Source of the DNA: Euglena gracilis
Taxonomy: Eukaryota
Reading direction: 5' to 3'
DNA length: 64,000 bases
Assembly: GCA_039621445.1 (NCBI GenBank)
Contig: CP154954.1
Location: 49,269,847 to 49,333,846 of the forward strand
Shown: positions 8,001 through 63,700 of the stretch, in pieces
How positions within the stretch are numbered: the stretch's first letter is position 1
How the letters are laid out: every line of letters begins with the position of its first letter
Program-made: the position numbers and the translations under genes
The notes under the pieces: model-generated
The model's database searches: none
The model's input: only the letters and a program-made list of their open reading frames with translations
What the model was told of the DNA's origin: nothing

Positions 8001-8943
8001 GGAAAAGGTGTTTTTTGAGCCAAAAATGAACGTTTTTCGACCCCTGGCGCCCCGTTTCGGACACAAAACCCTTGCATTTCAGTCAAAAGACCTCCATGGA
8101 GTGGGCCGGTGTATATGGGGGGTCAATGAAGGGGTGGGTGCTATCAAGAGCTCAGCACTATTCAAAACCTGGTCCCGACCCCCCCCCCCCCCCCGGGGGA
8201 GTAAGGTGGTAGGGGGGGGGGGCGGACCTCCCCCCCCCCTAGATGTTGGGAGGGGACCCCCCACCCCCCCTCCTTGACAGGTGCCAAAAATAGCAGAAAA
8301 TTTTTTTCCGGCGCTGTGCGCCGGAAAATGAGCAAAAACACCCCTTTGCTGACTTTTGGACATATTACCCATTTTTTGATGTGTTGGTGTTTTCCCCCAA
8401 ATAAACTTTCAAAAAAACTTCAAAAAAATGAGCTTTTTTGGATCGATTTTCAAAGAAAAATCAGGGATTCTTGACCGATTTCGACCCGATTTCCGGCCCT
8501 TTGCCCGTCCATGAAATCGAAAAAATTTCGCCCCCCCCCCCTCAGTTTCGAGGTAGGAGGGGGGGGTCCGACCCCCCCCCCCCCTGTGTGCACTGTGGCT
8601 GTTTTTTTGGTGCCTTTTATCCCTTCTTCTGGCCTGGCGCTGTTGTTCGCCTCTGGCACTTTTTGTCTGTGTGCGTGGAGGTGGCCGGAGCCTGGCGGGA
8701 CTTACCTTGTTTACGACGCCGGCCACCAAGCGCCCGCCAGGCACATACTCCATTTTAGTTAGGGGGGGTCTCCTTCGCCGTGACGACGCACCGGTTACTC
8801 TAGTCCACGACCCCAGCAGGTGTGGTTCCCAACTCAGTGCACAGGTCCACTCAATTAGGAACAAACTCGTGGGTAGGTCTGTTCCAGGCCCGGAGGCACC
8901 TCCCGGGGCAGCCCTGTCCCACAAGCACACCCACTTGGAACCC
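2090..8943 (+). CDS. Fragmentary multi-exon gene(s), Pro-rich hypothetical protein; may begin upstream of 2090
   Basis: GC-rich exon-like islands at ~2090, ~2880, ~3440, ~4776, ~5840 (AAASAFFVALRFNATTGAWKL) and ~6950-7136. In-frame GT-AG introns 7137-7201 and 7231-7329 give ...NNRSAG-MDGKPFAIE-GRGHLENRRIITMIP. Overall structure unresolved. Confidence 0.35.
2161..2293. mobile_element. Mini hAT-like MITE, CAAGCAC family
   Basis: Perfect 13-bp TIR CAAGCACCCATGG/CCATGGGTGCTTG; internal GGGCGTGAC(T/C) 10-mer array; degenerate TSD TCCCGAGC/CCCCAGGC. Confidence 0.8.
4893..5014. mobile_element. hAT-like MITE, possibly an intron
   Basis: TIR CAGGCTTCTCTTT/AAAAAGAAGCCTG; TSD CCCCCCGC/CCCCCCAC (7/8); internal (TCCGGG)n. 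Confidence 0.65.
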
Positions 8944-9092
8944 GGTCAGGCACCCCCCCTCCTGGGGGCAAAGGCGAACCTTATTTCAGCTGCCGGGTCC
9001 ACCCCCCTGGGTCTCCTTCCCCCCCCCCCCCCCCCCCCCCCCGTGTCGGGAGGGGGGTCCGACCCCCCCCCCTCAAGGTTTCCTATCCATCC

Positions 9093-10998
9093 CTGCTGCT
9101 GTGTGATCTGGCAGCGGCGCAGCCGAGCCCCACCCCGCGCTCCGACCAGGGTGTGCCTGACCCCCCCCCACGGTGCCGTGGGGTCACGGCACGGTACAGC
9201 GGCAGCATGGACAAAAGGTGAACACCGCCCCCGACTCAGCAACCGCTATGGCTTCGCCCCGCCCACCCGCCCACCTCGCATTGTGTCCTCTCACTCACAC
9301 CGACCATCAGTAATGGACAATGGCCGTGGGCCCTGCACACAATCCGGCCCACCGCCCCACGCCCCCCCCCTCCAAACCCAGGGCCGTACCTGCTGCAGTA
9401 CCTGAAGGGCACCTCCACCGCCTGCCTGGAGGCCCTGCCGAACCGCGTCAACGTCGCCCCGAAGTCCTGCAGCAAGACCGCCGCCCAGCAGTTCTATTAC
9501 TCTCCGACCCTCGGCGCGTTCAAGCCAGGCCGTATTTTACTCGGGTGCCGACCCCACCCCGGGGGGGGGGGTGCCTGTCTGGGCAGGCACTCATAGGCAC
9601 TCCGGAACCGCCCCCCCCCCCGGGGTGGTAAAAAACAGCCTGGTTCAAGCTGTTCCAGAAGTGCCTCGGCCTCCCCCCGGGCCCGGTGGGCGGCGGGCTG
9701 CAGCTGCTGACGTGCCCGGACCACGCCAACGAAAGTGTGGCGCACGCCCCCCCCCCCCCTGCCTGCACCGGCAGAAAAAAATGATGGAGGGTCTTTTGGG
9801 GGGGTTTTGAAAACTCGAACGTGCAGTTTTTTCCCGGATGGGAGGGGACAACACTCGATGTCGTTGAAGTTTCAAAAGTCCAGCACGAGGGAGACGAACG
9901 ATAGCTTTTTTGTGCATCTTCATGTCTTCCCCATTAATACAATGGGACCGAAAACTCAAACAGACCCCTCAAAGCTTCTGCTGATGTGGGGTATGTGCAT
10001 CTTCTATTTCATGCTTGGATGGTACCTTTGTGTCGTCTCTCATTTTCAAACCGTTTTTTGCTTGCCATATGTGGATTCCCCGGCCAGCAACGTCTGGAAG
10101 GCGCTCAGTCGCGCTGCCCCCCTCCAGATTTCAAGGCCACGTGGACGTGCCACCCGAAGCAGCGGGAGTGCTGTGTCGCGGCGAACAGCCACTACTGCGT
10201 CAAGATCAAGGACGGGACGTCGTGGCTGCCGGCGTGGCTGCCAGACGTGGACATGGGCAGCCCCAGTGTGTGCCGCCCTCCTGCCTGCACTTTCGTGCGA
10301 CGCCTCGTGTGGGCTTGGTCTTGTCCACGTTATGCTTCTGAGGCCAGACAAACGGGGGTCAAAGGAGCCTGTTTGCCAATAATGTGTGCCAATAATGCGG
10401 TCTTTTGCAGTGGTTGCAGTGGTGGGTATAAGTTTTTGAAAGCAACGTGGAATAAACAATTAAATGATAAATGATGAACTCAGGGTTTATTTTATGGCTT
10501 GAGGGCAGTCATTATTTGGTTATCAGCGTCAAACTCAAGATATTGGCCATAAAATCAGTTTGCCAGTCCCTGCAGGCATTTATTTTTGAACTATTTATAA
10601 AAATATAAATACATGTGCAATGTTAGTAAATTCAATAAATTGAATAAGGTCAACGATAAATAATATGCATATATTGTTTTTTATATTTATGCAATGGTTT
10701 TAGATATGTTTAAAATATTTGCAAAATGCATATATTTTTCCAATCTGTGCACAGAGCCAATTTTCTCGACATCAGTCCATTCTTCGGATGGACGGATGCG
10801 ATCACCTCTGCTATGCCATTTTCTCTGTGTGTGAGATTCTCTGCACTATTCTCTCCGCCTCGCACAGACGGCATCTGGCGGATGGTGGCCTACTTCATCC
10901 TCTTCACGCTCCTGCTGGACCTCGTGATGTGCGGCATCAAGCTGGCCATCAGTCTCCTCCGGTTCGTGTGGGGACTCCTGGAGAAGCAGGAGCCCGAG
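9093..10998 (+). CDS. Multi-exon Cys-rich ricin-B (beta-trefoil)-like protein with C-terminal TM segment; ends uncertain
   Basis: Exons ~9093-9150, 9382-9522, 9648-9734, 10128-~10255, ~10850-10998 give LLLCDLAAAQ...ACLEALPNRVNVAPKSCSKTAAQQFYY...KCLGLPPGPVGGGLQLLTCPD...ATWTC..., then MVAYFILFTLLLDLVMCGIKLAISLL. The CL-x-C-x-QxF/W pattern resembles ricin-B repeats. Confidence 0.55.
9526..9642. mobile_element. hAT-like MITE forming a non-conventional intron (9523-9647)
   Basis: TIR CAGGCCGTATTTTAC/GTAAAAAACAGCCTG; perfect 8-bp TSD GTTCAAGC (9518-9525, 9643-9650). Removing the element plus one TSD restores GAFKLFQKCL. Confidence 0.85.
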
Positions 10999-12597: not shown

Positions 12598-22390
<9,793 letters not shown>

Positions 22391-30647: not shown

Positions 30648-32367
30648 CAAGCACCTATAGCTAAAATGGCCTAAAATGGCCTAAAATGGCCTAAAATGGC
30701 CTAAAATGGCCTAAAATGACTTTTTGACCCCCTATAGATGGGGGTCCCTAAAATGGCCTAAAATGGCCTAAAATGGCCTAAAATGGCCTAAAATGGCCTA
30801 AAATGGCCTAAAATGGGAAAAATTCTGTTGCACAACAATTTTTTTGTGAACTACTGAAGCCATTCAGGCAATGACTTTCAATGTCCTTTGTTAATGCGGA
30901 CGGCAAACAGTGGATTTGGTGGAGGAGCACAGCCCCACAAGGCCCATGGTTTTATCCTAATAACACTCGTATCAGTCCCCAAATTCACAGCCCCAACCTT
31001 TTTTTGGTGGCTGAATTTTGAAGGTTTGGACAGATTATTTTTTCTTACTCCTATCTTGTTGGTTTGCACCGATGTTTGTTTCGCAAATAATGAAACGGAA
31101 GCATGGGGAAAAAGTCAAAACAAAGATGAAAGATGTTGGAAAAATCTCAATTGAAATATAAAATTCTAGCATCATATGAATATAACTTTTGTAAGTAAAT
31201 TTAATGTTTCAATTTTTATGAATAGACATAAAATTATTATGGATATTCTATGTATTTTATGTGGATATTTCGTGTGGGTATTTTATTATTATTAATTTTG
31301 TTGATATATTTTCCATATTTATAAAGATTTTATAGTCATCAATTTTTAATTGTAGAATTAAAAATATAACATTAACATTATATTTAATGCAGTTTTAGTA
31401 ATACAAATAACACATGTTTTCATACAATACAATCTTAGTAATAAAAGAGAAATAATTTGAAATTAATAAATATATGTACTAAGTAAAAATAATTTTTATT
31501 GATATAATGTGTAATTGTACAATAATTATTACTGCAATCATATTATCAATAAAATTGGAATAATTTTGGGATATATAATATGATAGCATATGATATATGT
31601 TATCCGTCAATAGGTACAGGATTAGGTTTATATATTTCACTTTTTGCCTGGTGAAATTCAATTTGACTTTGGCATTGTTTTAGGCATGTATATCATTCAT
31701 TTTATTATTATGATAAGTATTTAAAGAATAATTATTAAGATCTGTAATACAAATAAAAATTCATTGTATTTTTTGGAAATAATTTTTTGTTTGTATTATG
31801 GATCTTAATAATTATTCTTTAATATTTATCATAATAATAAAATGAATGATATACATGACTGAAACAATGCCAAAATCAAATTGAATTTCATTAGGCAGCA
31901 GCATTATCTTTCAGAAAAAATGACTTCTTATTGCGAAATTCCGCAAAATGGTGTAGAATTCACAAAAAAAAACGGGAGCCTTTTTGGTAGCACAAATTAA
32001 AAAAAATTATTTTTTGTCCAACGTTTTTTTTCTCTGAAAATTTTATCTACCGTAAATTCTTATTGTTCAGAATTCCTCTATGAATATGAATATAGACTTG
32101 CCGAGCTTCCCATTGTTTTGAATTTTGCATGCTTTTTTGGATGTACATTTGTTGTTACTGAACAAGAGAAGGTTTGCACACGTTATGATACTTTTTTCGG
32201 GACAAAAATGACGCAAAATTATGATTTTCAGAACCCCCACCTATACCTTAAAATGGCCTAAAATGGCCTTAAATGGCCTAAAATGGCCTAAAATGGCCTA
32301 AAATGGCCTAAAATGGCCTAAAATGGCCTAAAATGGGGAAATTTTTGGGCTTGACTATAGGTGCTTG
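30648..32367. mobile_element. Non-autonomous hAT-like element, CAAGCAC family (1.7 kb)
   Basis: Perfect TIR CAAGCACCTATAG/CTATAGGTGCTTG; perfect TSD GTTATGAC (30640-30647, 32368-32375); (TAAAATGGCC)n arrays near both ends; AT-rich core with no transposase ORF. Confidence 0.92.
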
Positions 32368-34225: not shown

Positions 34226-37200
34226 ATGCCGTTCTACGTCAACATTCTGCTGGATCGCACCCTGGAGGACCTGGGCAAGATTCGGGCCAGGACGCCCCCA
34301 CGGGTGAAGGGGGGTCGGATTCTGTTCTGGGGGAAAGCGCCTCTGGGAAATAACTAGTCTTTGTCCTCCAAGCCCAGTTAACCAATTCACCACACCCGCC
34401 ACTGTTTTGAATTTTGAGAAGAGGATTCCGATATTTTTCACTGAACATGGAAGGCTTCCAATTTTCATTTTGATTATTGGTCTGCCTCGATCAGCATGTG
34501 TTGTTTGCCAGTGGGTTGGGAGGTTTGTTTGTGGGCTTTCCATGTGCCCGTTTGCGTTCATCAGTGGCCCAAAGGATAACCCCCGGACAGGTCCCAGTGG
34601 GGGTTGGCCTGCCACCATCCATGGTGGACGTCAGCCGTGCGGCGACGGCAGCGGCAAAGAACGTGAACCTCCTCCTCCAGACCCCTCCGGCCCCCTCAAG
34701 GCACTGGGTGGCCAGTGTTAGCCCGCCGTGCTGAGGGAAACCTGCCTACCTACCCCCCCCCCCCAGATCAATGTCCTCCCCGGGAAACTGTGGCACTCAG
34801 GAAACTGTTTTCAACCCTGTGAACCCACTGTCTCCTAATTATGTGCTCGCTTACATCTTGTTTAAGCCAGTGGCCCCTCATTGCACAGGCTTCAACTGAT
34901 TTTTTTGTGGTTTCCTGTGGACCCAAGTGCAAGGACAATGCAACAGGACACATCAGTCTCACATTTATTTTTTGCATTTAACCCCCCCAAATAGCATATC
35001 CTAAGTAATAACCTCACTTGGACTCGATCTCGGTTGCCCATTTAATATTCACCCACATCTTTATTAACCTCTACAGGAAAAAATTGAGTTGGAACATATT
35101 TTGTGCAAATTTTCCATGGTTTCTGCCATGTTCGGATTGAAAATGGAAAGGAAAATACTAAAATTAAATAAATAAATGAATAAAATTGGCAAAAATTGCA
35201 CCTACCATGGATTTTGATGATGCAGCAGATTTACAACATATGTCGCAGTCAAGAATTTACACCCATTTTTGGGGTTGGTGTTGTGAGTGAAGAATTATTT
35301 AATTTCATCAGGGGGAAAAACGCAAATCCATTTTTTGTGTGTTTTTTTTTGCCTTTTTCGATTTTAGCAAAATTTGCGGTTTTTTTGCTTTTTTTTGCAA
35401 TTATTTTTCCCGACGATTTTTGGATTTTTGTTAGAAGGTTAGTTTGAACATGAAACATTTTTTGTTTGACCCTGATTTTCCCCCCAGACCAAAATTTTTG
35501 TCAATTTTCTGTCATCTTTGTTTTCAATTTTCTGTCAATTCAAGTCTGAGCTATTTTGGGTGGTCATTCTGGTATTTTTTTTCCGAGGTGTCTGGCGTAA
35601 ATTTCACTAGGCAACTTCCGCCTAAGACCTTTGATGCATCTTTTGTGGCCCCCATTCTCACACCACCCACCTCGTGGTTTCGTGTTCTTCGTTGGAGCAC
35701 GGCCGGCAGGCCGGGGGGGGGGGGGGCTTTCCGATGGGGATCCTCTGCCAGGGGGCCGGCGCCCAGCTCCCTGGGGGCGGACTACCTGCTGAAGACGCTG
35801 GAGCGGGCAGTGCCCCTGCGGGCGAAGGAGGCCGGGATCCAGCTGCGGCTGGTGCGCCGGCCATGGCCTCCCTGGCCCTCTCCCGGATCACCCACCCCCC
35901 TCAGGTCTCCCCCCAGGGCTCCCCCAGGGTAATTTTTTTTTCGTTGTCTTGTTATGGCTTTTCCGTTGTTGTAATACTTTGTATTTGATTGTGGGAATGA
36001 GTGGTTGGGCATGCCATCTACAGGTGCATCATGGATGGGTTCAGCATAGGTGAAGTTTATTCGAAGGTTCTTGAATCGCCTTGCACGATTTCCCCGGTGT
36101 ATGGTTGACCGCTGACTGGTTCCTGCCTGTGGGGAAGGCGGGAATTAAGAGGTACACTGATACGATCCCGGGGTCCCACACCACCCTGGGTGGGTGGCCG
36201 CACCCACGGTCTCAAAAGGAAGCCTGCACCCCACATCAGACAATGGAGGTTTTGACTGAAGTTTCTGAAACCCGGGATTAGAACGCAGTAGACACGTAAA
36301 GAGGTTGCGGGAACGGAGTGTCCCCACAAGTCAACCCAGGGGACCATCGTGCTGCTGCCAGATGGACCGGCTGCTGGTGCCCCCCGCCTGGCCTAGTGCC
36401 AGTATCTAGCCTTCCTCGCCTCCCAGTGGGTAGCACACTTCAGTCAGTATACCGCAGAAAAGAGTCTTCTGTACACCGCCGCACCCCCGCCGCTGGGGGG
36501 GATCGAGTGAAATAAAGTTGGGTCCAGCCTGGCTGGAGGCTGGGCCAGCCAGCTGCAGGCTGGCCAGCCAACTGGGCTGCCCAGCTCACCAGCGGTCCCT
36601 CCATTTTTTTTCTCATCACAGCTTCCTCCATCACAGCCCCCCAGCCTTGATCTATCTCCATCCATCAAAATGTCGAGAAGGCAAAAATGTTTTAGAAAAT
36701 TTTGTTTTTCATCGACCCAGCCCAGCCCAGCCCCCTCCAGCCCCGGCCCCCCCCCTATCCCCTGGGGGGGGGGAGGTCCAGCCAGCAGCTCGTTTCCAGC
36801 CAGCAGCCTTCTTGCCAGCCGGAGGCTGGACCCCCCGGGGGGGGGGGGGTCCTTAAGAAATTCCCTGGCCATGGCAGCCTTGGTTGCTTGCTGCGTACAC
36901 TGCCGGGCGAATCATTTTGCCACCGCATTGAGCTGCCGGGTGGCGCACCGGTGGACAGCAACCGCCGATGGGGCGTTGGCGTTGGGCCCCGGGCCGGGCG
37001 GGGGCGGCGATGCTGGCCATCATCGACCGCGTCGACATGGACGCGATGGCGGCCTACGCCGAGGCTCGGGGGTCCTCGGCGGCGGGCTGCCTGGACTGCG
37101 TGGCGCGGGCGGGCCGGCTGTGCGGCTGCGACGGCTGTGACAACGGCGCCCGGGGCGATGCCCCTCACCGTCTGCCACAACGCTGCGGGGTCCTCGGTTA

Positions 37201-40035
37201 GAGATTCATTCAACTCAGAGGGGTCGAACCGTTTAACACCAGTTCAACCCCTCCCCCCCCCCCGGTGATTTTTGAGACTGGTGGGTAGGTTCAGCCGCTG
37301 GACCCCCCCCCCCACCTGTGAGTCAAGGGGAAAATTCAGGGCTGATTTTGGGTTGGTTTTGATGGGTTGGTGTTGGTGTTGGTCGACCCCCGGGGGAGGG
37401 GGTTCGTGTTTGACTGGGTTCTCAAACAAAATGGGTGGGTAAACCTGGGGAAAGGTGCCAGCCCCGGGGGCTCACCAAGAGTAAGTGAATCTGGGAGATC
37501 CACCCCTGTCGCCTTTTTTTTTGCCTGCCGGCCACCCCCTTTTCACCACCCACCGCCCATATCAAAGTATATTTTTTTCTTTGTTGTGCTTCCTGGTTGC
37601 CTGTGGCTGATTCCCAATGTTGGCTGCCGACAATTTCCAGGGCCACAGGCTCAAATAGTCTGGGGATCCTGACACCTTATCAGGCTCAAACCCAACACAA
37701 CCTGGGTTTGGCAATTTTCGGGGGGGGGGGATGTATTCGGCGAGGTGTCAATTGAGCTTTTTGGTTCTGCAAAAAAATGCTTGGCACACCTTTCTTTACC
37801 CCCCCCCGTCAGAAGGCGATTTTCTTGTGGTTTGGCCAGTCCGCAGAGTGTTTATTTAGGGCCGGAAAACCCTCCTGTGCTCATTTTTCATCATTCGTAT
37901 TCATACGCATAAATTCATTCACTTCTTTTTTTCATTTGAAACAAACGCTGGGGCTTTTCGGCGTCCTCGGGGCTCGGCTGGGTCGCCGGCAAGCACCTCT
38001 GATGATGCTGGGCGATGCTGGGCGATGCAGGGCGATGCTGGGCGATGCTGGGCGATGCTGGATTTTTGGAGACCAGAGGTGGGGTTCCGATGCTGGGCGA
38101 TGCTGGGCGATGCAGGGCGATGCTGGGCGATGCTGGGCGATGCTGGCATTTTTTTGTATATTTTGGAGAATTGAACCATTTTGGGGATAATTTTCCCACA
38201 AAGCTCCAGTTTTCCACCCATTTTGGCCATTATGGGTCAATTTTGGGCTAATTTGGGGGCTATTTGTCACTGATTTGGCCAATATTGGGCTCATTGGGGC
38301 CTTTTTGAGCAGATTTTATGGCATTTTGCTTCTTTTTGGTGATTTTGGGTCATTTTTCACAATCTTTTGTGGACATTGTTGGCATTTTTGGGCAATTTTT
38401 GGTTATTTTGGTTGCTTTTTGGGCTTTTTGTGGTCAATTTTGGGCTTTTTGTGGCCATTTTTTGGCTTTTGTGGTTATTTTGGCTTGGTCAGGAGCCAAC
38501 GGATGAATACTGGACAGATACTGGACAAGATGCAGATGCTGGACAAGATGAACTGGATGCAGGCAGTGGACAAGATGCAGATGTTGGACAAGAAGCCGAT
38601 GCTGGACAAGATGCAGATGTTGGACAAGATGCAAATACTGGACAAGATGCCGATTCTGGACAAGATGAACTGGCTGCAGACACTGGACAACATGCAGATG
38701 GTGGACAAGATGCAGTTGCTGGACAAGAAGTAGATGCTGGACAACGTGCAGATGCTGGACAAGATGCAGATACTGCACAGGATGCAGATGCCGGACAAGA
38801 AGCAGATGGTGGACAAGATGCAGATGCTGGACAAGGCAGTGGATGCAGGATGCAACGGATGCAGATACTGGACAAGATTGAGACGCAGCCGAAGCCACTC
38901 CCTGCAAAAGCCCGGCCTTGGAGCTCAATATATTGGACAACACAATCGACTGGTCGGATACGGCCACACTTTGCTGTGTCTTTCCTTTGCTGGTTTAACC
39001 TCTGCACCACATCCTGTGCCGGCAAAAGCAGCAGAAGTGGTCAAAAAGTGGTCAAAAAGCAGGCAAAAGTGGGGTAAAGTGGTCAGAAAGCAGCAAAAGT
39101 GGTAAAAAAAGGTGGGCAAAAGTGGGCAAAAGTGGTCAAAAAGCAGCAAAAGTGGGCAAAAAAGTGAAAGTGATCAAAAAGCAGCAACAATGGCCAAAAG
39201 TGGGCAAAAAGTAGCAGACATGGGCAAAAGTGGTCGAAAAGCAACAAAAGTTGTCAAAAGTGGTCCAAAAGCAGGCAAAAAGGGCCAAAAGTGGTCAAAA
39301 AGCAGCAAAAGTGATCAAAAAGCTGCAAACGTGGTTGGAAATGGGCAAAGGTGGGCAAAAAGCAGCAAAAGGTGGTCAAGAAGCAGTCAAAATTGGTCAA
39401 AAGGCAGCAAATGTGGGCAAAAGTGGTCAAAAAGCAGTCAAAAGTGGTCAAAGTGGGCAAAAAGCAGTCAAAAGTGGTCAAAGTGGTCAAAAAGCAACCA
39501 AAGGTGGCCAAAAGTAGCCAAAAGTGGGCTAGAGCGGCAAAAGTAGCAGGTATTATAGGTACACCTTCAAGGGCTCCAAAGGCGATGCTGGGCGATGCTG
39601 GGCGATGCTGAGCGATGCTGGGCGATGCTGGGCGATGCTGGGCCCAAGGGCATGGCTGACCAGAGGTGCTTGGTCGCCGGGGGCCGCCCTGCCGGCGGGA
39701 CCAGCGCCGTGGTGGAGCGGGTGCTGCAGAGCCAGATCAAGGAGAGCGTCGTGAAGGAGTGGCTGGGGCCAGGCCGGCGTCCCCTCTGACCTGGACCCTG
39801 GGATACTGTCATTATAGGGGCCTGCCACATACCTCTGTCAGGTCATCAAGCATCTAAGTGCCTGACAGGCGACAATTTCCTGGGGGGGATGCTCTCACAC
39901 TCATACACACACATGTCCAAACAAAAGGTTTCTTTTCTTAACGGCTGCCACTGCCCCTGCTCCCTGCTCCCCAGCTGCTATGAAGTCCAAATCTGCCGGC
40001 CCACTCCTCCAGCCGGTGGAGGACGAGTTACGAGG
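34226..40035 (+). CDS. Multi-exon hypothetical protein; 3' end uncertain
   Basis: Exons 34226-34284 + 34617-~34715 (MPFYVNILLDRTLEDLGKIR-SMVDVSRAATAAAKNVNLLLQ), ~35765-35860, ~37005-37143, ~37943-37986, 39678-39766, 39972-~40035. Introns 34285-34616 and 39767-39971 follow the CAG+4/CTG-8 rule and join in frame. Confidence 0.6.
37990..39672. mobile_element. Non-autonomous hAT-like element (CAAGCAC family) occupying a whole intron
   Basis: TIR CAAGCACCTCTG/CAGAGGTGCTTG; perfect TSD GTCGCCGG (37982-37989, 39673-39680); (GATGCTGGGC)n arrays at both ends; internal 18-bp minisatellite and degenerate GTGGTCAAAA repeats. Confidence 0.9.
38510..38878. repeat. 18-bp minisatellite (CTGGACAAGATGCAGATG)n inside the element
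   Basis: About 20 degenerate units visible; produces the LDKMQM / GQDADA pseudo-ORFs. Confidence 0.9.
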
Positions 40036-43800: not shown

Positions 43801-46800
43801 GCCCCAAGTGAGGCTTCGGACCTCCGGGTGGAGGACCTGACGGGGGACCCGGCCCCGGAGGACGCCCCCGCCGCAGCCAGCGACCCTCTGGCCACGGAGA
43901 GGGACTGGTCTCTGCCGTGTGCCCCCCCCACCCCCCCCACCACCGGCTGGTCGCTGCCGGCACCCGCCCCGGCGCCGCCCCCGGCCACGCAGTGCTCCCC
44001 CTCCCTCATCCCTCCCCCCGTGCCCGCCTTTCCCCTGCCCGCCACGGAACTCCGGGAACCGGACCCCCCCAGTCCCCTTCTCAGTCCCCTTCCCTTGGGG
44101 GTGTGCCATGCCCTGGACTTTCCTGAGGCGGATGCCACTCCTGACGGTTGTATTGCCGGGCGCCCTGGGGGACCGAGTTCCTGTCTCGGCAGCAGAGATT
44201 ATCCTTAAAGCTGGAAAGATGTCAAAAAAAAAACAGATCCGAAGGGAATTTTTAAGGGGTTTGAAGGTATATTCCCAAGGGCGGCCCCAGGGCGGGGTGG
44301 ATATCGAAAACGTAAAAAAGGGAAAAAGCTCACTCTTTTCAAGTGTTGGTTGATGGACAATGTTCAAAAGATGCCAAAAATCATTTTTCTTCCTGGGGTT
44401 GGCTTGTTTTTGTTTTGCTGGACTTTTGTCACTTCATCTTCATTGATCCGGAGAACATTCTTCCAGAATGTTCTTTTTAGAGGTTTTTGTAAGGCATTTT
44501 TAGTTTTGCAGGGTTTTTGAGGCATTTTAATGCACTTTAAGTCATTTTGGACAAAACGAAGGACATTTTTTAAAGGTCAAAATATGCCCGAAAGAAATAT
44601 CGCCTACTCAGCAGGCATTCAAGGAAACCCGACTTGGGCAGTCGGGATATGCCTTTTCGATTTTTTTATTATTATTATTTTGCAATCACGCTCTCAAACC
44701 TTTTATTATTCAACGTTCACCAACCGGCGCTCGGCAGATCACCAGACAACCGGGCCCCCCCCCCCCCCGACGAACTGTCACAGACTGGGGACTGGCGCCG
44801 CCCACCGCCCTGACCAGCCCGCCCGACCCGCCCGACCCGCCCGCCGGCCCTGCAGCCGAGGCCGCAGCCACCCCCCAGCCGGCGGCGCCCAGTGAGGAAC
44901 CCGAGCCACCCCCGCGGGCCCCGCTGCCGCCCGCCGCCGACGCACCGGTGGACGGTCCGCCACCGGAGGCGGCATCACTTCCCGCCCCGCCCCCGCCGGA
45001 GCCCCCCGCCGCCGTCCCGGTGGCCGCGGAGGCGGCCCCGCCCGCCGCCCCCGCCGCAGCCAACCCCGCCGCTCCCCCCAGCGTGCAGCGCAGCCCCAAG
45101 TGTGGATTTGGCGCCGCGCTGGCCACCCACTTCCCGGCGCGGCCCACCTCGTTTGGGGGGGTGGGGGTGGAGGCGGCTTGAGGGCCTTCCCCGAGAGTTT
45201 GGCCGGTCCGCCAGGCCAACCTGGCACAACAGGATGGGGCGTACAGCGAAGGTGGAGGGGGGCCGCCGCCCGCCGCTCTCCGACCAGCAGCTGCGGCGGG
45301 CGTTCTGCTTCTTCGACCCGGACCACGCCGGCGTGGTCAGCGAGCAGGACCTCCACGTCGTGCTGCAGGCCGCGGGCTGCCCCGTCCCCCGGCATTGGCT
45401 CGGCCCGTGGGGGAGGTTGGCTGGGCCGTGTGGCCCGGCCGTGCCAAAAGATCGCCGGTCCACCCGCGTCCTGATGGAGCTGTCATGGTTGGGCAAGGTT
45501 GGGGCCCCAGGCCATTCCCCTCCGGGCTCAGGGATTTTTTAGTCTTGGACTCGGGGGGGGGGGGTCTGGCCGAGACCCCCTCGGGGTCCCCGGGGGGATA
45601 TACATTTCGGCGCTGAAGGCGCTGAAATTTTCTGAAATTTTTAGCGTTTTTTGACCATTTTCGGGGAAAATCGAGTCCCCCCCCCCCGCGGTCTTAAAAA
45701 ACCCTTTCCGGGCTGCAACGCCGGCCAGCGCCGGCCAGCACCCCCGGCCCCGACCCCCGCCGCCAAGCTGTCGTTTCCCGCCTTCCGGCAGGCTGTCCTT
45801 CACCTGTGGGAGAAGGTGCCCAGGCTGGGGGGAACCCTCCCGCCTCCAACGAAAGGTGATGACGGAACAGGGGGGCGATCCCCCCCTGCTCCCAGGTGGG
45901 TGGCAGCTCTTTACGGTAAGCGCTCACCCCCAAGGATGCCGTGGAAACCTGTGAGAAGGGATATTGGGCTTTCGGGTGCTTTATAGCTTTGAAAGGTGTG
46001 AAAGCTGGAAAGCTGTACACAAAAGCAGTGAGCACCCCAGGCCTGCAGCTGCCCTACGGTGATCTGCCCGGGCGACTCATGGCATTTGTTGAAGGTGCAG
46101 CAGAACAGGTCCGTGCCTCGTCATTTGCTGACCGATTGCGAGTCGGATCCCAATTGCGTGCCTCTCCCACTCTTTGGCACGCTGTTTCCAGGATTGTTGG
46201 GCCGCCACAGAACCCAGCCACTCCACCTCTTTACCCTGACTCTCCTTGAGATCCTTGAGATCTTGCAGGAATGAGTCCAAATGGGCCAACCTTTCTTTGC
46301 TCCCATGCTTTTCTGGATGCCAATCGCAGGTTTTCCATGTTGCGGATGTACGCATTGTGCTTCTAGATGCGACTCTCGTTTATAGGATACCCTCAGTTTA
46401 AAATGGTGGCTTATTGCAATCCCTCTGGGGCAAACTTTTTTTGGTGAAGTGTGAGAAAAATATATTCACCCAAATCGCCCACCCACCCACCCACCCACCC
46501 ATCCACCCACCCACCCAGGAGGGAGGGAGTATGCCTGTCCAAACAGCACACAATGCCTGTCCAAAGAGCACAGGAGGGGTATTAGCAGGCCTATTTGTAT
46601 CCTCGCACCGGGTTCACGTCGGGCAGATGGCTGAGTTTGAGGTGAACTGCCTCGGACGGCGTGTATTCTTTCAATCCCTTCGGCTAGGAGTGCGACGCCC
46701 GCTATGCCGCCACGTCCAGCGAGCGCAACGACGTGCGGCGCCTCTTCGACCTTCTGGACCATCGTGGCGTGGGCGCCCTCTCCGGTGCGGTCATGGAGCG

Positions 46801-47860
46801 ACTGAGGCGGCCCCTCGCTTCCGAGTTCTAGTCCCTCAGGTCCCTCATTTTTTTGGAGTTCTTGTTCTTATTGCTCTCTTTTACGATCCGAATTTTTGGG
46901 TCCAGGTTTTGCACCCCCCCCACATGTCGGACGTCGGCTGGCCCAAGAAAGAAATTTGGTTGCCGGATTGTGACTGAAGGGTGACCTTGTGCCATCAGCA
47001 CAATGCCTGCCATCATCGCAAAGCTGCTGCATTTCGTGTGATGTGTGTGTGTGTGTGTGTGTGTCTGTGTGTGTGTGTGTGTGTGTGGGTGGGTGGGTGG
47101 GTGGGTGGGTGGGTGTGTTGGCGGACCTGTTCAGCAATGGCTCCTTCTCCTGTTGTTGGCAGTTTAGCCTGTTGGAAGCGGTGGGCCGCATCCGGCAACG
47201 CCCTGGGCGTCATTTTCCACTGGCGGCTATTTGTGGACCCAGAGCAAGATGCATTAGCCAGGGGGTTGGTTACCTTTTGGGGGGGGGGGTGATATGAAGG
47301 CAGCACGAGATGGGCTTGCCAACGTTTGAGGCAAAACGCCCATGCAGTGATGTTGCCCATGTGGTTCCTGACGGCAATGCTTTGCGGTGCTACGAGGGCC
47401 TTGTTGACCTGCCACGGGGAGCCAGGCGCTGGGGTGCCGGGCCCCTGACCCCAACCTTCGCGCAGTTCACGGCGATGCTGGAGCAGTACGGCCGGGCGTA
47501 CCCGCACTACGCCGTGGCGGAGAGTGCGGTGGCCCTCCTGGAGGTGGCGGAGACCCGCCTCATCCGCCGGGTGTGGGTGGCCCGCGTGCCCGCCGCAGAG
47601 CCCCCACTCTGCCAGCCCAGCCCACCCTTGAAGCCTCCTGGGCTCCTTTAACTTCCCCGAGCAGGAGCAGAGCCGCGCCAAAATTTGGCTGAAAAATGGC
47701 CGTGTAGCCCAAAGGGTTGGGGGAAAAGTAAAGCATGGTTGGATAGGGCATTCCAAGAGCTTCATTTTTACTCTCCAGACATTTTCTTTGATTTTGCTTC
47801 ATCGTCGAGATATTTTGGAAAAATCGATTTTTTTTGCTGCCGGCCAGCTCTGTCCCATAC

Positions 47861-47895
<35 letters not shown>

Positions 47896-49277
47896 CCGCG
47901 CGCGCGCGCGCGCACGCACAGACACACACACACAGTGTCTGCCTCCCCCCCCCCCCGACAGGTGGCCGTCACGGTGATGGGTGCGCGCGACATCCTCGAG
48001 AGCGATGTGTACGCAGAGGTGCTGGTGGACGGACGGCAAAAGTCCACGCTGACCAAGATCTGTACTAGCCGCCCCGAGTGGGATGAGCCCAGGCCGGACG
48101 ATTCAGCCACCTCCCCTCTGTGAAACATTTGCGGCACTGGCCTTGGTTTCCTGGTAATTCAGTTGCTGTTTCTTTAGCAGGGCGGGAACCAGGGATTTTT
48201 TTAAGTTTGGACCCCCGGGGGGAGGGAGGGGGGGGGGTAGGGTAGGTGGGTCCGCCGGACCCCCTCCCCCCCCCCCCCCGGGGGGGGGGGTCCCCCCCCG
48301 GAGGCCTGTGGGATATACTTTTCGGCGCCGCAGGCGCCGAAAAAATTCTATTTTTAGCACTTTTCGCGATTTTTCGGCCATTTTTTTGCGGGTCCCCCGG
48401 GACCCCCTCCCCCCCCCCCGGGGGGGGCGCCCCCACGGGGGAGGGGGGGTGGGGGGGGACCCCCCCCTCCCCCCCCCGGTCTTAAAAAAACCCCTGGCGG
48501 GAACACACACAGGTTTTTTTGCATGTTACAAAATTTGCGTTTTTCTCGTTTGTGTGTGTGTGTGTGTGTTTTCCCAGTGTTTTTTATTTTTGCTGGAGAA
48601 ATTTTTCGACAATGAAAAATTCTTGTTTTTGCCCCCAATCTTTCCCTGAGATGAAAAATTCTCTCAATTTTTTTTGTCATTTTTGAATTTTTTGGTCAAC
48701 AAATTGCATATGTTTGCCCGAAACCCAAGGGTCGGACCAACCTGTTTCCCACGGGGGAGGGGGTTGTGGCCCTTGACTACACAGCCAGGCAGCCTGGGTA
48801 TGGTGTGCGCTCCATCCGGGAGCATCCTCCTCATCCTCACTCTTTTGGGTCCTCGGTGGGTTTGACATCATTGGCGGTTCGCAACCTCCTTATTCGACCT
48901 GCCTGTTGCCAACGTTGGAGTTTGTCATACTCTCCAGTCAACCATCACCAAAGTCCGTAACGGTGGTGTTAAAGCACCGTGACAAGACAAGTGAGGTGTA
49001 CCCCACAGTGTCCAATGTGCATTCATACAGCATTCTGGATATGAGCCCGCAACCACGTCTGCAATCAACAAGGACACACACACACACACACAACACACAT
49101 ACACACACACACACATATGCCCGCACGCACACACACACATACACACGCACACGCACACACATACGCGCACATACACACACATACACACAAGCACACACGC
49201 ACACACACCCACACACCCACACACACGCACGCACACACACACACACAGACACACACATTCACACACACATACACATG

Positions 49278-49340
<63 letters not shown>

Positions 49341-49549
49341 CGGGTTAGCGCGCAACTGCACAATGACGACCCACACCGTCCACTGCGTTGCAGGACCGAA
49401 TCGTGGGGCAGGCCACAGTGGCCATCACCGCCCAGCGGGGCTCCCTCGTCAACGAGTACCGGCTCTGCCCGCCCCTCAGCAGCGCCTCCTCAGGCTTCGT
49501 GACCGTCGCCGTGCGGCTCTGCTTCCAGGACCCGGCGGTGCTCACCTGC
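40804..49549 (+). CDS. 5' part of a large multi-exon gene: Pro/Ala-rich region, EF-hand-like motifs, C2 domain
   Basis: Exons 40804-40917, 41341-~41460, further islands at 41720-43120, 43720-43986, 44783-45101, 45247-~45407 ([21 protein letters not shown]), ~45752-45815, 46688-46783 ([17 protein letters not shown]), 47457-47576, 47962-48086 ([24 protein letters not shown]...PEWDE), 48911-48995, 49394-49549 (DRIVGQATV). Joins from 43720 onward are in frame; linkage of the earlier exons is less sure. Confidence 0.7.
42188..42310. mobile_element. TA-flanked MITE
   Basis: Inverted ends CCTAC(n)TGGGAAACTGTCA / TGACAGTTTCCCG(n)TAGG; TA on both sides. Confidence 0.75.
42412..42650. repeat. ~70-80-bp tandem repeat, about 3 copies
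   Basis: Unit GAACCGTTTTGGAAGCGAATTCCTTTTGCTGCTCAACTGTCCCAGGGCCCC...AAAATCCCC recurs. Confidence 0.9.
43423..43595. mobile_element. TA-flanked MITE
   Basis: Inverted ends CCCGC(n)GGGCAATTG / CAATTGCCCG(n)CGGG; TA flanks; internal CAATTGACGCCCCCGGG repeats. Confidence 0.75.
45529..45706. mobile_element. hAT-like MITE nested in an intron
   Basis: TIR CAGGGATTTTTTA/TAAAAAACCCTT; perfect TSD TCCGGGCT (45521-45528, 45707-45714). Confidence 0.8.
48190..48496. mobile_element. hAT-like MITE nested in an intron
   Basis: TIR CAGGGATTTTTTTAAG/CTTAAAAAAACCCCTG; perfect TSD GCGGGAAC (48182-48189, 48497-48504). Confidence 0.88.
49074..49340. repeat. Degenerate (CA)n microsatellite
   Basis: Directly visible. 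Confidence 0.9.
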
Positions 49550-49913
49550 GTCGGGAAGCCGTACCACTAGGGCGGCCCCCCCCCCCCCCCCCCCGTCCTC
49601 GCCTGGCCCCGTAGGCGAGGGTCCGGACCAGCCGCCCCCAACGTTGGCCTCCCGTCAAACCCAGCTCTCCCCCTCCCCAGGCTTAATGGAAGTCTCCGAG
49701 ACGGGGGGGGGGGACCGAAGCCAGGCCGAAGCCAGGCCGAAGCCAGGCCGATGCCAGGCTAAAGCCAGGCCGAAGCCAGGCTAAAGCCAGGCCGAAGCCA
49801 GGCCTAAGCCGGGGGTCCGACTGATCGACTCCACTCCCCCTTGGCCTTCCCGTGCCACTCCCCCCCCCCCAACGGCCCGATGAGGCGCCGCCCTGCACCA
49901 CATCCCGCCTCAG

Positions 49914-50095
49914 GTGGGCACGCCGCGCCGCAGCCGCCGGGCGCTGGTGGTCGGCATCAACTACCTCACGTGCACCCTGGGCCGGCCAGGGGTTGTGGTT
50001 CTTGTGGTTCGTCTCCGCACACACCCACACATCCGCCTGCCCCCAAGCACGCGCGCCTGCACGCTGGCACACACACATACACGCACACACGCACG

Positions 50096-50126
<31 letters not shown>

Positions 50127-53100
50127 GCAGACACATACGCACGCACACACGCATGCACGCACGCAGACATGCGCGAGCGCGCACAAACACACACACCTAC
50201 ACACACGTGTAGGGGTTTGGCCGAGGGGAGAGGCGCCCCTGCCACCGGCTGTGGGGCTGCATCAATGATGCCCGCCACGTGGCTGACATGCTCTGCCAGC
50301 AGTACAACTTCTCCCCGGATGCCGTCCGGGTCCTGGCCGGGGCCCCTCGCTGATACACATCGTCCCACGCAGGCATTGGGTCTGGGGCTGTGCCTCTCTC
50401 CCGGTGGTTCACGCCCTGCCATGCTGCAGTCCGGGATGGTGTTGCGTCGCCTGGCAGGCCGGAGGGGGGCGAACATGACAGCAGCAACATGGGCCGCCCA
50501 ACATGTTGTAGGTCGACGCGGTTGATGTTGATGGTATAGATGCTGTAGAGGGTGGGGTGGGGAAGCCCACGCCTGCAATTTCAAGCATCACATGTCATGA
50601 CTGAAAAATTGCACAGAAATACCCCTCCCAAAAACGTGTCAGAAAAATTCGGAAGAGTTCAATAGAAGAGGGTGGGCAGGCACGACATTGGCTCAAATCA
50701 GTGAACGGTCGAAGCGTCGAACAGTGAAGCACCACACCATGTGCCCAGGGCACAATGTCACCCCCGCAAATGACACCCTCCACGCTGTCCCACGGGCCCC
50801 AGGCCGTCGAGGGTTCCGAACCGACGGACGATGCAGAGGAACGGGCGGTCCCCACCGCCGCCAACCTCCGCCTCGCGCTGCAGGCGCTGATGGCGGGCGT
50901 CGAGGCGGGCGACACGGTGGTGTTCCACTTCAGCGGGCACGGGTCACAGGTGTGTCACCCCCCAACGTGCCAGGTTGTGCCGAAGCGTCCTCCAGCAGGC
51001 CATGCCACTGGCTGACTGGGTAGCCTGTCACTCGTTGGCGGGATGTCGTTGTTGTTACTGTCACTCATTCGCTAAGCCAACGTTGCAACGTTTCTCATGT
51101 TGCATAATTCTGCAAAGGTTTTGTCTGGCTGAGGAATGCTATTTGTCTTCTTTTGGGAAGCCTTGCACCCGTCGGAGATGAATATTGGCTGCTATCATGC
51201 CCCCCCCCCCTAGTTGAGGACAAATATCATTATAAATTTGACTGGGGGTCGGCAGGATGCATTCCAAAGAACAAGTGAAGTTTTCAATGCCAGATTTGCA
51301 CATTCCAGACAAAGAAGTAACAAAAAAGAATTCTATTTTGGGCGTATATCACATCATACACCACGGTATTGTCTGTGATGGCATGTTTCCAAATGATGTG
51401 GATGTGACCCCGCCTCCAGTGTCCAAAACCTGACAAATTCCAACAACACACCCAAACCCCAGAATGTCTCCACGTGCTTCGCCGCAACCTCCCACTTGTG
51501 CACGTGACCTCTCATCCCCCCGCAGGTGATCCAGGCGGACGCCGCCACGCAGGAGGATTGCCTCCACGACTGCCTCTGTCCGGCGGACATGGACTGGGCC
51601 GGCAACGCCCTGACGGACGAGGAGCTCGACCGCGCCCTCGTGCACGACTGCCCCCCGGGGGTGCGGGTGACGTGCGTCCTAGACTGTGGCCACACCCCCA
51701 GCGGTTCCCCAGCTGCTGGTGTGCCAAGCAATGGGAAAGGGGATGGGCATCACCACCCGAGTCGCTGATTGGCATCTTCTGGCGGGTTTGGGGAGTCTGT
51801 GCCCATATTTTGAGGAAAAGGGGTTAGGATCGGCGCGCTGAAAATTGGCCAGTTTTGGGTCAACAGTTAGGCCAGAAGTATGGTCCCCGTTTCGGAAGAC
51901 TTTTTGTGAATCCCTTTTCCTAAGAATTGCTGTATATATGTATTGTATGTGTACATGTGTTATACATGTACTGTAAATGTATGTGTACATATGTATGTGT
52001 GTGTGTATATGTATGTGTGATAGGTGTGTGTGTGTGTGTGTGTGTGTATCATGAATATATGGGTCATGAGGGAGTGGCTTTCCTTCAGTATCCTGGGCCA
52101 TTGTGTCTACACCTAAAAATTGTTGGAGGATGCTCACGAATATCCACTGACGTTTTTTTTTTTAACCTTGCATGCAACAGAAAATTCAAAATCGGCAATT
52201 CAGAAAAACCCACGAGAGGTTCTCTTAAGCTGGATGGGGCGCAACCCCCAAGGGGGGGGGGGTCCAGCCAGCACCTCCCAGCCGGGTTTCGGACCCCCCC
52301 ACCGAGTGTTCTCTGGAAAAAAAAAGTTGGTAAATAAAGCTGGGTTCAGCCTGGCGAAGCTGGGTGGACCGAAAATTTTTTCGGGTGGGGGTCCAGCCAG
52401 CACCTTTTTCCAGCCGGCCCACGGGACCCCCTGGGGGTTTTTAAGAAATACCCTGCCCCCCCCCCCCACATACCATCAGATTGGGAGGCACTCCACACTC
52501 CAAACGCTCTCACTCGTCGCTCAGGTGTGGCACGGGCCGCTTGCCCGCTTAAGGAGTGCCACACCGCGGCCCGGTACCTGCCGCCTCCCCCCTCGATCCT
52601 GGATCGCCTGGCGACCGTCGCTCCGCAACAACCGCCGCGCCGGCGCTCCAAGCCAGACCGTAGTCAAGAGGCGAAGGTGGTCACGCTGTTGACGGGCTGT
52701 CAGGTGTGACCTGTGCCGCCGCCGGTGGCCGTCACGTCACGTCACGTCACGTCACGTCACGTCACGTCACGGCGTATTCGGTACGCGTTGTCCCACAGGA
52801 GCACCAGGCGGCTCAGGACACCGTCCTGGACGGGGCCAGCCAAGGAGCTTTGACGTGGGCGATGCTAAAGGTGTTGGTGAAGAGCCGTAGACGGCCCTCC
52901 TTGAGTCCTGTCATGACGCAGTGAAAACAGAAACGCCATCGCATGGATTGCTGCGGTTGCTGTACCAAACCACCTGCAGCTGACACGCCGAAGGTTTTGA
53001 TTCAGGGCTGGGAAGTGGAGTGTTGATGGCTGGCGAGGAAAGGAGCAAGCACCAATATTTATGGAATGGCTGTGAACTGGGCCTGACTTGGGCCTGACTT

Positions 53101-53418
53101 GGGCCTGACTTGGGCCTGACTTGGGCCTGACTTGGGCCTGACTTGGGCGTGACTCGACGTGACTGGGTCTGGGATGCTGGAATACTATGGGTGCTTGGAA
53201 AGAAGGCATGGCATGAGTGTGTTGGCCGCCCTGCAAAGGCCGCCCCGGAAACGGATCGGGTGGGGCCGTCGCCGCAGTACCGCGTCACCGCGGAGGGCCT
53301 CTGCCGCGCGGTGCGGGAGCTGCTCCGCCGGCAGCGGCTGGGCCAGGTCCCCGGCCTGCGGGCCTCCGGCCCCCAGTGCCTCACCGCCCCCTTCATCTCC
53401 GGCCCAGAGGGGCCGTGA
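49914..53418 (+). CDS. Metacaspase (peptidase C14) domain, 7 exons; probably the C-terminus of the EF-hand/C2 gene
   Basis: Exons 49914-49983, 50247-50335, 50803-50949, 51526-51703, 52525-52703, 52799-52886, 53276-53418 give RRALVVGINY...LWGCINDA...PTAANL...FHFSGHGSQ...CLCPADMD...LTDEEL...VLDCGH...RYLPPP...LLTGCQ...QGALTWAML...QVPGL..stop, the metacaspase motifs in canonical order. Confidence 0.9.
52731..52770. repeat. (GTCAC)8 microsatellite
   Basis: Directly visible inside intron 52704-52798. Confidence 0.9.
53046..53197. mobile_element. Mini hAT-like MITE, CAAGCAC family
   Basis: TIR CAAGCACC/GGTGCTTG; TSD GAAAGGAG/GAAAGAAG (7/8); (TTGGGCCTGAC)n array; right end similar to the 2161-2293 element. 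Confidence 0.8.
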
Positions 53419-53824
53419 CCCGTCCCAGCCACCTACCCCGTCCGCTCGCGCCCGTCTTGTCGTGTCGTGCCTCCTTCGCCCCCTGCGTCAGATCAACATT
53501 TACCCACTCCACCTCCCCACCCTTGTACACCTGTACATAAACCCTGTCCCTCCCCGTCGCCCCCAACCCGGGACACTGTTCAATAGGCCGTCCACCAACC
53601 TGCATGTCGCTCGCTTGCCTGCGCTGGGTTGGGATTCACACTTGTGTCCAAGGTTGCTTACTCCCTAGCCCCAAGGTCCGAAGATGGACCTGGAATTCAC
53701 TATTAATTTTTATTCAATTAAAATTGATTTTTCAGTTGATTTTGTTGGTTCAGTTTATGCTTTCGGTATCAGATAGCACGCAAACCCTAAATTTCGGTTT
53801 TGCACATCTGAGGCATGACGTATG

Positions 53825-54654
53825 CAAGCACCTCCAGCGAAAAATCCCGACAACTCCCTGCAAATTCCGACGAACCCTGACAAATCCTGACAAATCCAGA
53901 CAACACTTTTTTGGACCTCTGGAGGTGTTAGTTCCGACAAATCCCGACAAATTCCGACAACAGTGCAATTTTTTTTGGAAGAATAGATTGTTGACAAAAA
54001 GATGGACAAATTTGCCCAAAAGGAATATTATGATGATTGATTCTGGTGTCTGTGTTTATAAAAAAAGAGGTTTTTTTTGTGTCTCCAGAGGTTGTTCGAA
54101 AATGAGACTCCCTAAACAACAATCAAAAACAGCAAAACTCACCCAAAGTGGCCAGAAGTGATTTTGATGGTGACCGAAAGTGACAAAAATAGCCATAGCC
54201 GTGGCCAAAATTTTCAAATGTGGTCGAAAAGTGGGCGATTTTGGCCAAATGTGCTAAAAGCAGTCAAAGGCAGCAAAAAAGTGGTCAAAATTGGCCAAAA
54301 TGGTTTGAAGGTGGCAACCGTGGACAGAATGGGCCAAAACCAGCCAAAAATGGCTCACAGTGTGCAAAAGTGGAAAGAAAAGAGTGTTCCAAAGTCAGAA
54401 AAGTGGCCTAAAAAAAAAAAAAAAAAAGAAGGCCAAGCGTGGGCAAAAGTGCCCAAAAGTGGCCAAAAGCAGTCAAAAGCCTCCAACAGTGGCCAAAAGT
54501 GGCCTGACGTTGGCCAACAGTGGGCAAAAGTGGCAAACGTCGCCAAAAGTCGTCATTTCCTCAGATCAAATACTGCCATAAGCATGTGCCGGGACTCCGA
54601 CATTCAAAACCCGACAAATCCCAACGACATTATTAAAGTGCCTGGAAGTGCTTG
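53825..54654. mobile_element. Non-autonomous hAT-like element, CAAGCAC family
   Basis: TIR CAAGCACCTCCAG/CTGGAAGTGCTTG; TSD GACGTATG/GACATGTG (6/8); AAATCCCGAC-type arrays at both ends. Confidence 0.8.

Positions 54655-55699: not shown

Positions 55700-63700
<8,001 letters not shown>

Follow-up and report, generated by a model that had tools for sequence, protein, structure and literature searches.

Nonconventional introns of euglenids (Milanowski 2016, PMC4770533; Gao 2024, PMC11170887) have recently been described by a splicing code, 5'-N3CDG-/-CH'GN5-6|R, which covers 61% of nonconventional introns, with ~29% of introns unclassified (Nomura et al. 2025, PMC12501133). According to the same source, introns of the CGG-CTG class are spliced in knock-ins, C is disfavored as an exon start, and the knock-in variants include CAG-to-CAT, CCC/GGG, and CTG/CAG. 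Paired CAA/TTG ends are not among the knock-in variants in the greater part of its main text, in its SI text, or in the first part of its Dataset S9, and CAA-TTG is not a listed class in its Datasets S7/S8. Pairing at +4 to +6 is conserved more than sequence (Milanowski 2016, PMC4770533), and the appearance of a full-length circular RNA on excision is a feature of these introns (PMC11282704).

The origin of euglenid introns from MITEs is a published hypothesis (Milanowski 2014, PMC3935182; PMC11282704; discussion in PMC12501133). The available portions of this MITE-origin and introner literature (PMC3935182 and PMC11282704) name no hAT family, 8-bp rule, or CAA/TTG class, and a literature search, with most subscription papers outside its reach, found no hAT or CAA/TTG intron class. 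Definitions are available for non-autonomous hAT elements and MITEs (PMC3942097), as is the hAT target consensus, nTnnnnAn (PMC2803484).

Here, we describe a transposon that lies inside an intron of Euglena gracilis, in a stretch of 64,000 nucleotides (the window; contig CP154954.1 of assembly GCA_039621445.1, positions 49,269,847 to 49,333,846). The introns in the window follow the euglenid nonconventional pattern. The intron that hosts the transposon matches the CGG-CTG class exactly; its stem is paired and the following exon begins with a purine, whereas the CAA and TTG ends of the transposon itself fall outside the published code (Table 1).

Table 1. Features of the transposon, its host intron, and the adjoining exons (positions within the window)
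Feature	Positions	Strand	Remarks
True upstream exon	37009..37147	+	~204-aa protein; RNA joints
Host nonconventional intron, 2,549 nt, N3-CGG...CTG-N5 then G	37148..39696	+	RNA joint 37143-39693, 5-base slide
Exon of the original prediction, intron sequence	37943..37986	+	Skipped by all listed spliced reads
Left 8-bp target-site duplication, GTCGCCGG	37982..37989	+	Single copy at the empty sites of L022 and L023
Non-autonomous hAT-like transposon, 1,683 bp	37990..39672	+	Passenger in the host intron
Left terminal inverted repeat, CAAGCACCTCTG	37990..38001	+	Perfect, 12 bp
Left subterminal 10-bp repeats, GATGCTGGGC units	38004..38148	+	Repeat family D4
Right subterminal 10-bp repeats, GATGCTGGGC unit, orientation as in the left set	39584..39644	+	Repeat family D4
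Right terminal inverted repeat, matching CAAGCACCTCTG	39661..39672	-	Perfect, 12 bp
Right 8-bp target-site duplication, GTCGCCGG	39673..39680	+	Perfect match to the left copy
3' pairing arm of the host intron	39681..39696	+	Undamaged by the insertion; duplex with the intron 5' end
True downstream exon	39697..39766	+	RNA joints
Junction of a ~400-bp deletion in the window copy	39783..39784	.	Comparison with sister copies; RNA

The element and its family

The 1.7-kb mobile element is real. Its terminal inverted repeats (TIRs) and, as predicted, its target-site duplication (TSD) are perfect. This arrangement is not due to chance: the window contains two pairs of perfect 12-bp TIRs with 8-bp TSDs, as against none in each of 10 shuffles, and the two sister copies of the gene, L022 and L023, have an empty site with a single GTCGCCGG. 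An assembly artefact was considered and rejected, as contigs from the runs X1 and X2 cross the left junction with 0 differences. Tandem repeats of 10, 18, and ~20 bp build up the interior, which shows no sign of a transposase. By analogy with hAT elements in general, the subterminal GATGCTGGGC repeats are likely transposase-binding sites.

A search of the genome (2.37 Gb in 46 contigs, with the window on contig C1) revealed at least 40 long copies, including that of the window, with identities of 83-100%; over 1,682 aligned bases, the window element and another genomic copy differ by 10 mismatches. Genome-wide, the 25 bases of the left end have 4,756 exact matches (control, 0), a count of family left ends that is inflated by a left end captured in a sibling family. 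Both ends, together with a duplication matching at 7-8 of 8 positions, were found in 51 of the 90 loci examined, which represent 35 distinct sites. At these 35 sites, the copies are 188-2,232 bp long, and the duplication has T at position 2 in 20 cases; in 19, position 7 is A.

The sibling family, represented by loci L036, L120, L122, and L150, has CAG/CTG ends and forms a composite repeat that includes the captured CAA-type left end (605 matches). This composite repeat also accounts for RNA reads that run through the left end of the element. Loose RNA ends at that position, examined as a possible trace of the transposase, were traced to the composite repeat instead.

The family shares with non-autonomous hAT elements and MITEs TIRs of 10-25 bp, TSDs of 8 bp, the nTnnnnAn bias, a large number of copies, a lack of coding capacity, and subterminal repeats; in contrast to typical MITEs, most of its copies are longer, 1.3-2 kb. 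The genome commonly encodes hAT dimerisation domains (150 scored matches to PF05699). None of the 20 fetched regions with such a domain is bounded by the family's ends, and no match to a hAT transposase was found in 116 family loci. With its 8-bp TSD, thousands of family ends, and no sign of a transposase inside, the 1,683-bp element supports the earlier proposal of a 1.7-kb non-autonomous hAT-like unit; it is a non-autonomous and likely hAT-type cut-and-paste transposon.

Several other elements are present in the window. Three of them have related ends (30648-32367, 53825-54654, and 57541-58793, with 8-bp duplications matching at 8/8, 6/8, and 8/8 positions, respectively) and look intronic or intergenic; the one at 57541-58793 combines a CAG left end with a CAA right end. 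Other elements, at 7199-9095, 9526-9642, 17973-18284, 48190-48496, and 55720-55997, have 8-bp duplications and ends of the CAG or CAT type. To the eye, the exon-like stretches in 45230-53420 resemble a putative EF-hand, C2, and metacaspase gene.

The element in its host intron

RNA joins position 37143 to 39693 (with a slide of 5 bases), and both flanks of the element are therefore intron. This joint is present in all 4 raw-read RNA runs, in a total of 44 reads (X21, 18; X24, 2; X22, 16; X23, 8), from runs chosen by species label of which ~5% each was read, and in all 3 RNA-like contig runs (X1, X2, and X4), with one contig each; none was listed in X20, a probable DNA run. The intron removed in this way, 37148-39696, has three features of a nonconventional intron, an RNA joint, the N3-CDG...CH'G-N5|R pattern, and paired ends. 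The 16 bases of its 3' arm (39681-39696) form a duplex of -30.5 kcal/mol with the first bases of the intron, equal to the value in the empty copy C. A Pfam search with the two exons that flank the intron, parts of the ~204-aa protein, assigned them to no family.

According to the original prediction, the transposon is apparently spliced as one intron, with ~37943-37986 as a short and less certain upstream exon; 39678-39696 would then be exonic as well. RNA instead removes the larger 37148-39696 that contains it, and by the joint 37143/39693 both segments are intron. The outcome is the alternative that the prediction itself had named, in which 37943-37986 is nonexonic and the element sits close to the 3' boundary of an intron larger than itself, here one of 2,549 nt. 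It is hardly credible that the element is a nonconventional intron between the 44-nt exon 37943-37986 and 39678, even though the flanks do join in frame as written once the element and one TSD are removed, its own ends pair well (the 12-bp end pairing being perfect), and relatives from its family are apparently spliced at two loci elsewhere. The RNA junction at 37986/39678 that this would produce was looked for and is absent from the complete 6-row table of joints (threshold, 3 reads from 2 starts) as well as from the joints listed in a wider read mapping, which shows all but 126 weaker ones, and the proposed exon is skipped in all listed spliced reads. Moreover, the sister copy L022 lacks 37938-37959, a segment that includes 17 of the 44 bases of this exon. 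In its own register, the element would read CAA...TTG, N5, and then C, a disfavored exon start, outside the N3-CDG...CH'G-N5-6 pattern followed by a purine; it was not found as an intron of its own, flanked by exons and missing from mature RNA.

It is by coincidence that an in-frame peptide precedes ...GTSAVVERV.... The region around the 3' arm of the host intron is GC-rich and, read in frame with the next exon, free of stops; this accounts for the false exon. Exon predictions call for caution where the 3' arm of a nonconventional intron is GC-rich, as such an arm can mimic an exon.

The same mature RNA would result from nested splicing, in which the element and one duplication are removed first and the restored ancestral intron of ~858 nt second. 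The family ends seem spliceable at other loci and, in the window, pair perfectly over 12 bp, yet we consider this order of events quite improbable. No intermediate joint is listed (at ~5% of each raw run read, a rare inner splice would escape detection), the acceptor would begin with C, and the outer stem forms without inner removal, so that nothing requires it. The element in the window is very probably a passenger in an ordinary CGG-CTG nonconventional intron.

The history of this passenger can be pictured as follows. A hAT transposase acting in trans would have inserted the element, as suggested by the 8-bp duplication and the nTnnnnAn target bias, 16 bases before the end of what is now a 2,549-nt host intron, in one of three copies of the gene. 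Directly downstream of the insertion point begins the 16-nt arm with which the intron 5' end pairs; being just outside this arm, the insertion would leave the stem unchanged and would for this reason be tolerated. The element and the host intron would then leave the RNA together, in one step.

Gene copies and the state of the window allele

The gene in the window has three copies, 93-95% identical, on one contig (G000:C1:47.9, 48.3, and 49.3 Mb), and three variants of its exons are found among the RNA reads. In the two empty sister copies, the host intron is 836 and 849 nt long. Many other genes are likewise present in two or three copies, with 93-98% identity, on one contig. From the assembly and the read variants, these multiple copies are probably haplotypes, placed in tandem in the case of the window gene; a literature search on Euglena ploidy found nothing.

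The window copy is damaged downstream of the host intron. A deletion of ~400 bp at 39783/39784 takes out a 73-nt coding exon that the two sister copies and the RNA retain, and the resulting frameshift predicts a product of 154 aa versus 204 aa. One contig of X4 reveals a cryptic CTG...CAG nonconventional intron, 39788-40017, that spans the deletion and would give 175 aa.

The letters of the window copy account for 10 of the 62 reads at position 37074, a diagnostic base (P = 0.002 versus one third), and the reads over the joint 37143/39693 derive mostly from the two empty copies. For the copy that bears the element, clean splicing is thus less well shown than the joint itself. The low read share could be explained either by decay due to the frameshift or by splicing impaired by the insertion. 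In the latter case, the insertion would hamper removal of the host intron and the window copy would be a weak or dead allele, with the junction reads coming mainly from the empty copies. We regard this as unlikely, because the exon-removing deletion, with its predicted frameshift (154 or 175 aa, not 204), could cause decay on its own, and because one X4 contig has the exon letters of the window copy on both sides of 37143/39693, with 0 differences, although phase in a contig is not the same as phase in a read.

Family copies in coding exons elsewhere

Exons elsewhere in the genome match E. gracilis transcript-derived proteins at ~100%. Among the 35 distinct sites, one is clearly coding, an exon of the gene for phosphonopyruvate decarboxylase (ppd). 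Here, the element lies within the coding exon in both assembled gene copies (L133:301-1915 and L155, at G000:C1:30.556 and 30.123 Mb; 1,615 and 1,291 bp, respectively), where a retained element would introduce stops in every frame. The protein from EG_transcript_15698 is continuous and lacks the element together with exactly one of the two duplications.

The source of this continuous transcript may be an unassembled empty allele. There is a third haplotype block that runs collinear to the ppd region and ends 1 kb before the gene, and the transcriptome may stem from a different strain. Both assembled copies carry the element, and the exact empty-site motif, which was searched for, is absent. 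In the aligned exons, EG_transcript_15698 agrees with copy B at both residues that differ between copies A and B. A comparison with 119 homologs does not polarise the informative residue, a Leu/Pro difference beside the ppd site, which so does not prove that the transcript stems from an element-bearing copy.

From 100 of the 145 matches of a biased pattern search, 20 regions (13 distinct sites) were picked by eye; two of them are coding-like and have both ends. One is in a RING/ZZ zinc-finger gene, both assembled copies of which carry an 83-bp family member within an exon (L210:3929-4011 and L211, at G000:C18:16.409 and 18.240 Mb); the protein from EG_transcript_9897 is continuous. The other, a sibling element of ~1 kb with CAA/TTG ends, occupies an exon-like stretch rich in proline (L201:3025-4011, L202, and L203, at G000:C6:10.96, 11.39, and 11.94 Mb) and is present in all three copies with lengths of 987, 1,113, and 1,080 bp; no transcript-derived protein for this site was found among 35 candidates, which is weak evidence. 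At all three coding-like sites, the sixth position of the duplication is G, as needed by the N5|R rule, an agreement that lends weak support, since a purine is found at this position in 26 of the 35 distinct sites anyway.

Taken with the continuous transcript-derived proteins, the genomic sequences suggest that the CAA...TTG members in the ppd (1.3 and 1.6 kb) and RING/ZZ (83 bp) genes are likely spliced out as introns. The broader proposal that kilobase-sized CAA/TTG hAT derivatives are tolerated as introns therefore fails at the window locus and gains indirect support from these two genes. Like introners and the elements of the MITE-origin model, the family combines inverted ends with flanking duplications in genes, and its copies outside the window seem to be spliced out along with exactly one duplication; the window copy, in contrast, is not an introner insertion.

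On balance, we favor the view that this hAT-like family with its CAA...TTG ends acts as an introner that the published Euglena code does not cover. Copies of 83 bp to 1.6 kb that landed in coding exons, and whose 8-bp duplication has a purine at position 6, would be removed without a scar, together with one duplication, by a machinery that reads the pairing of the ends at +6/-8 and not a G-C pair, and the window copy would be one of many passengers.

At the window locus itself, the consequences are small, a transposon within an intron. If CAA/TTG elements of up to 1.6 kb are indeed spliced, the 2025 code would be too narrow at its third position, and part of the ~29% of unclassified introns would be explained. 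The choice between a sequence signal and a transposon fingerprint (Milanowski, PMC4770533) would then become testable by a single knock-in, that of the 83-bp copy.
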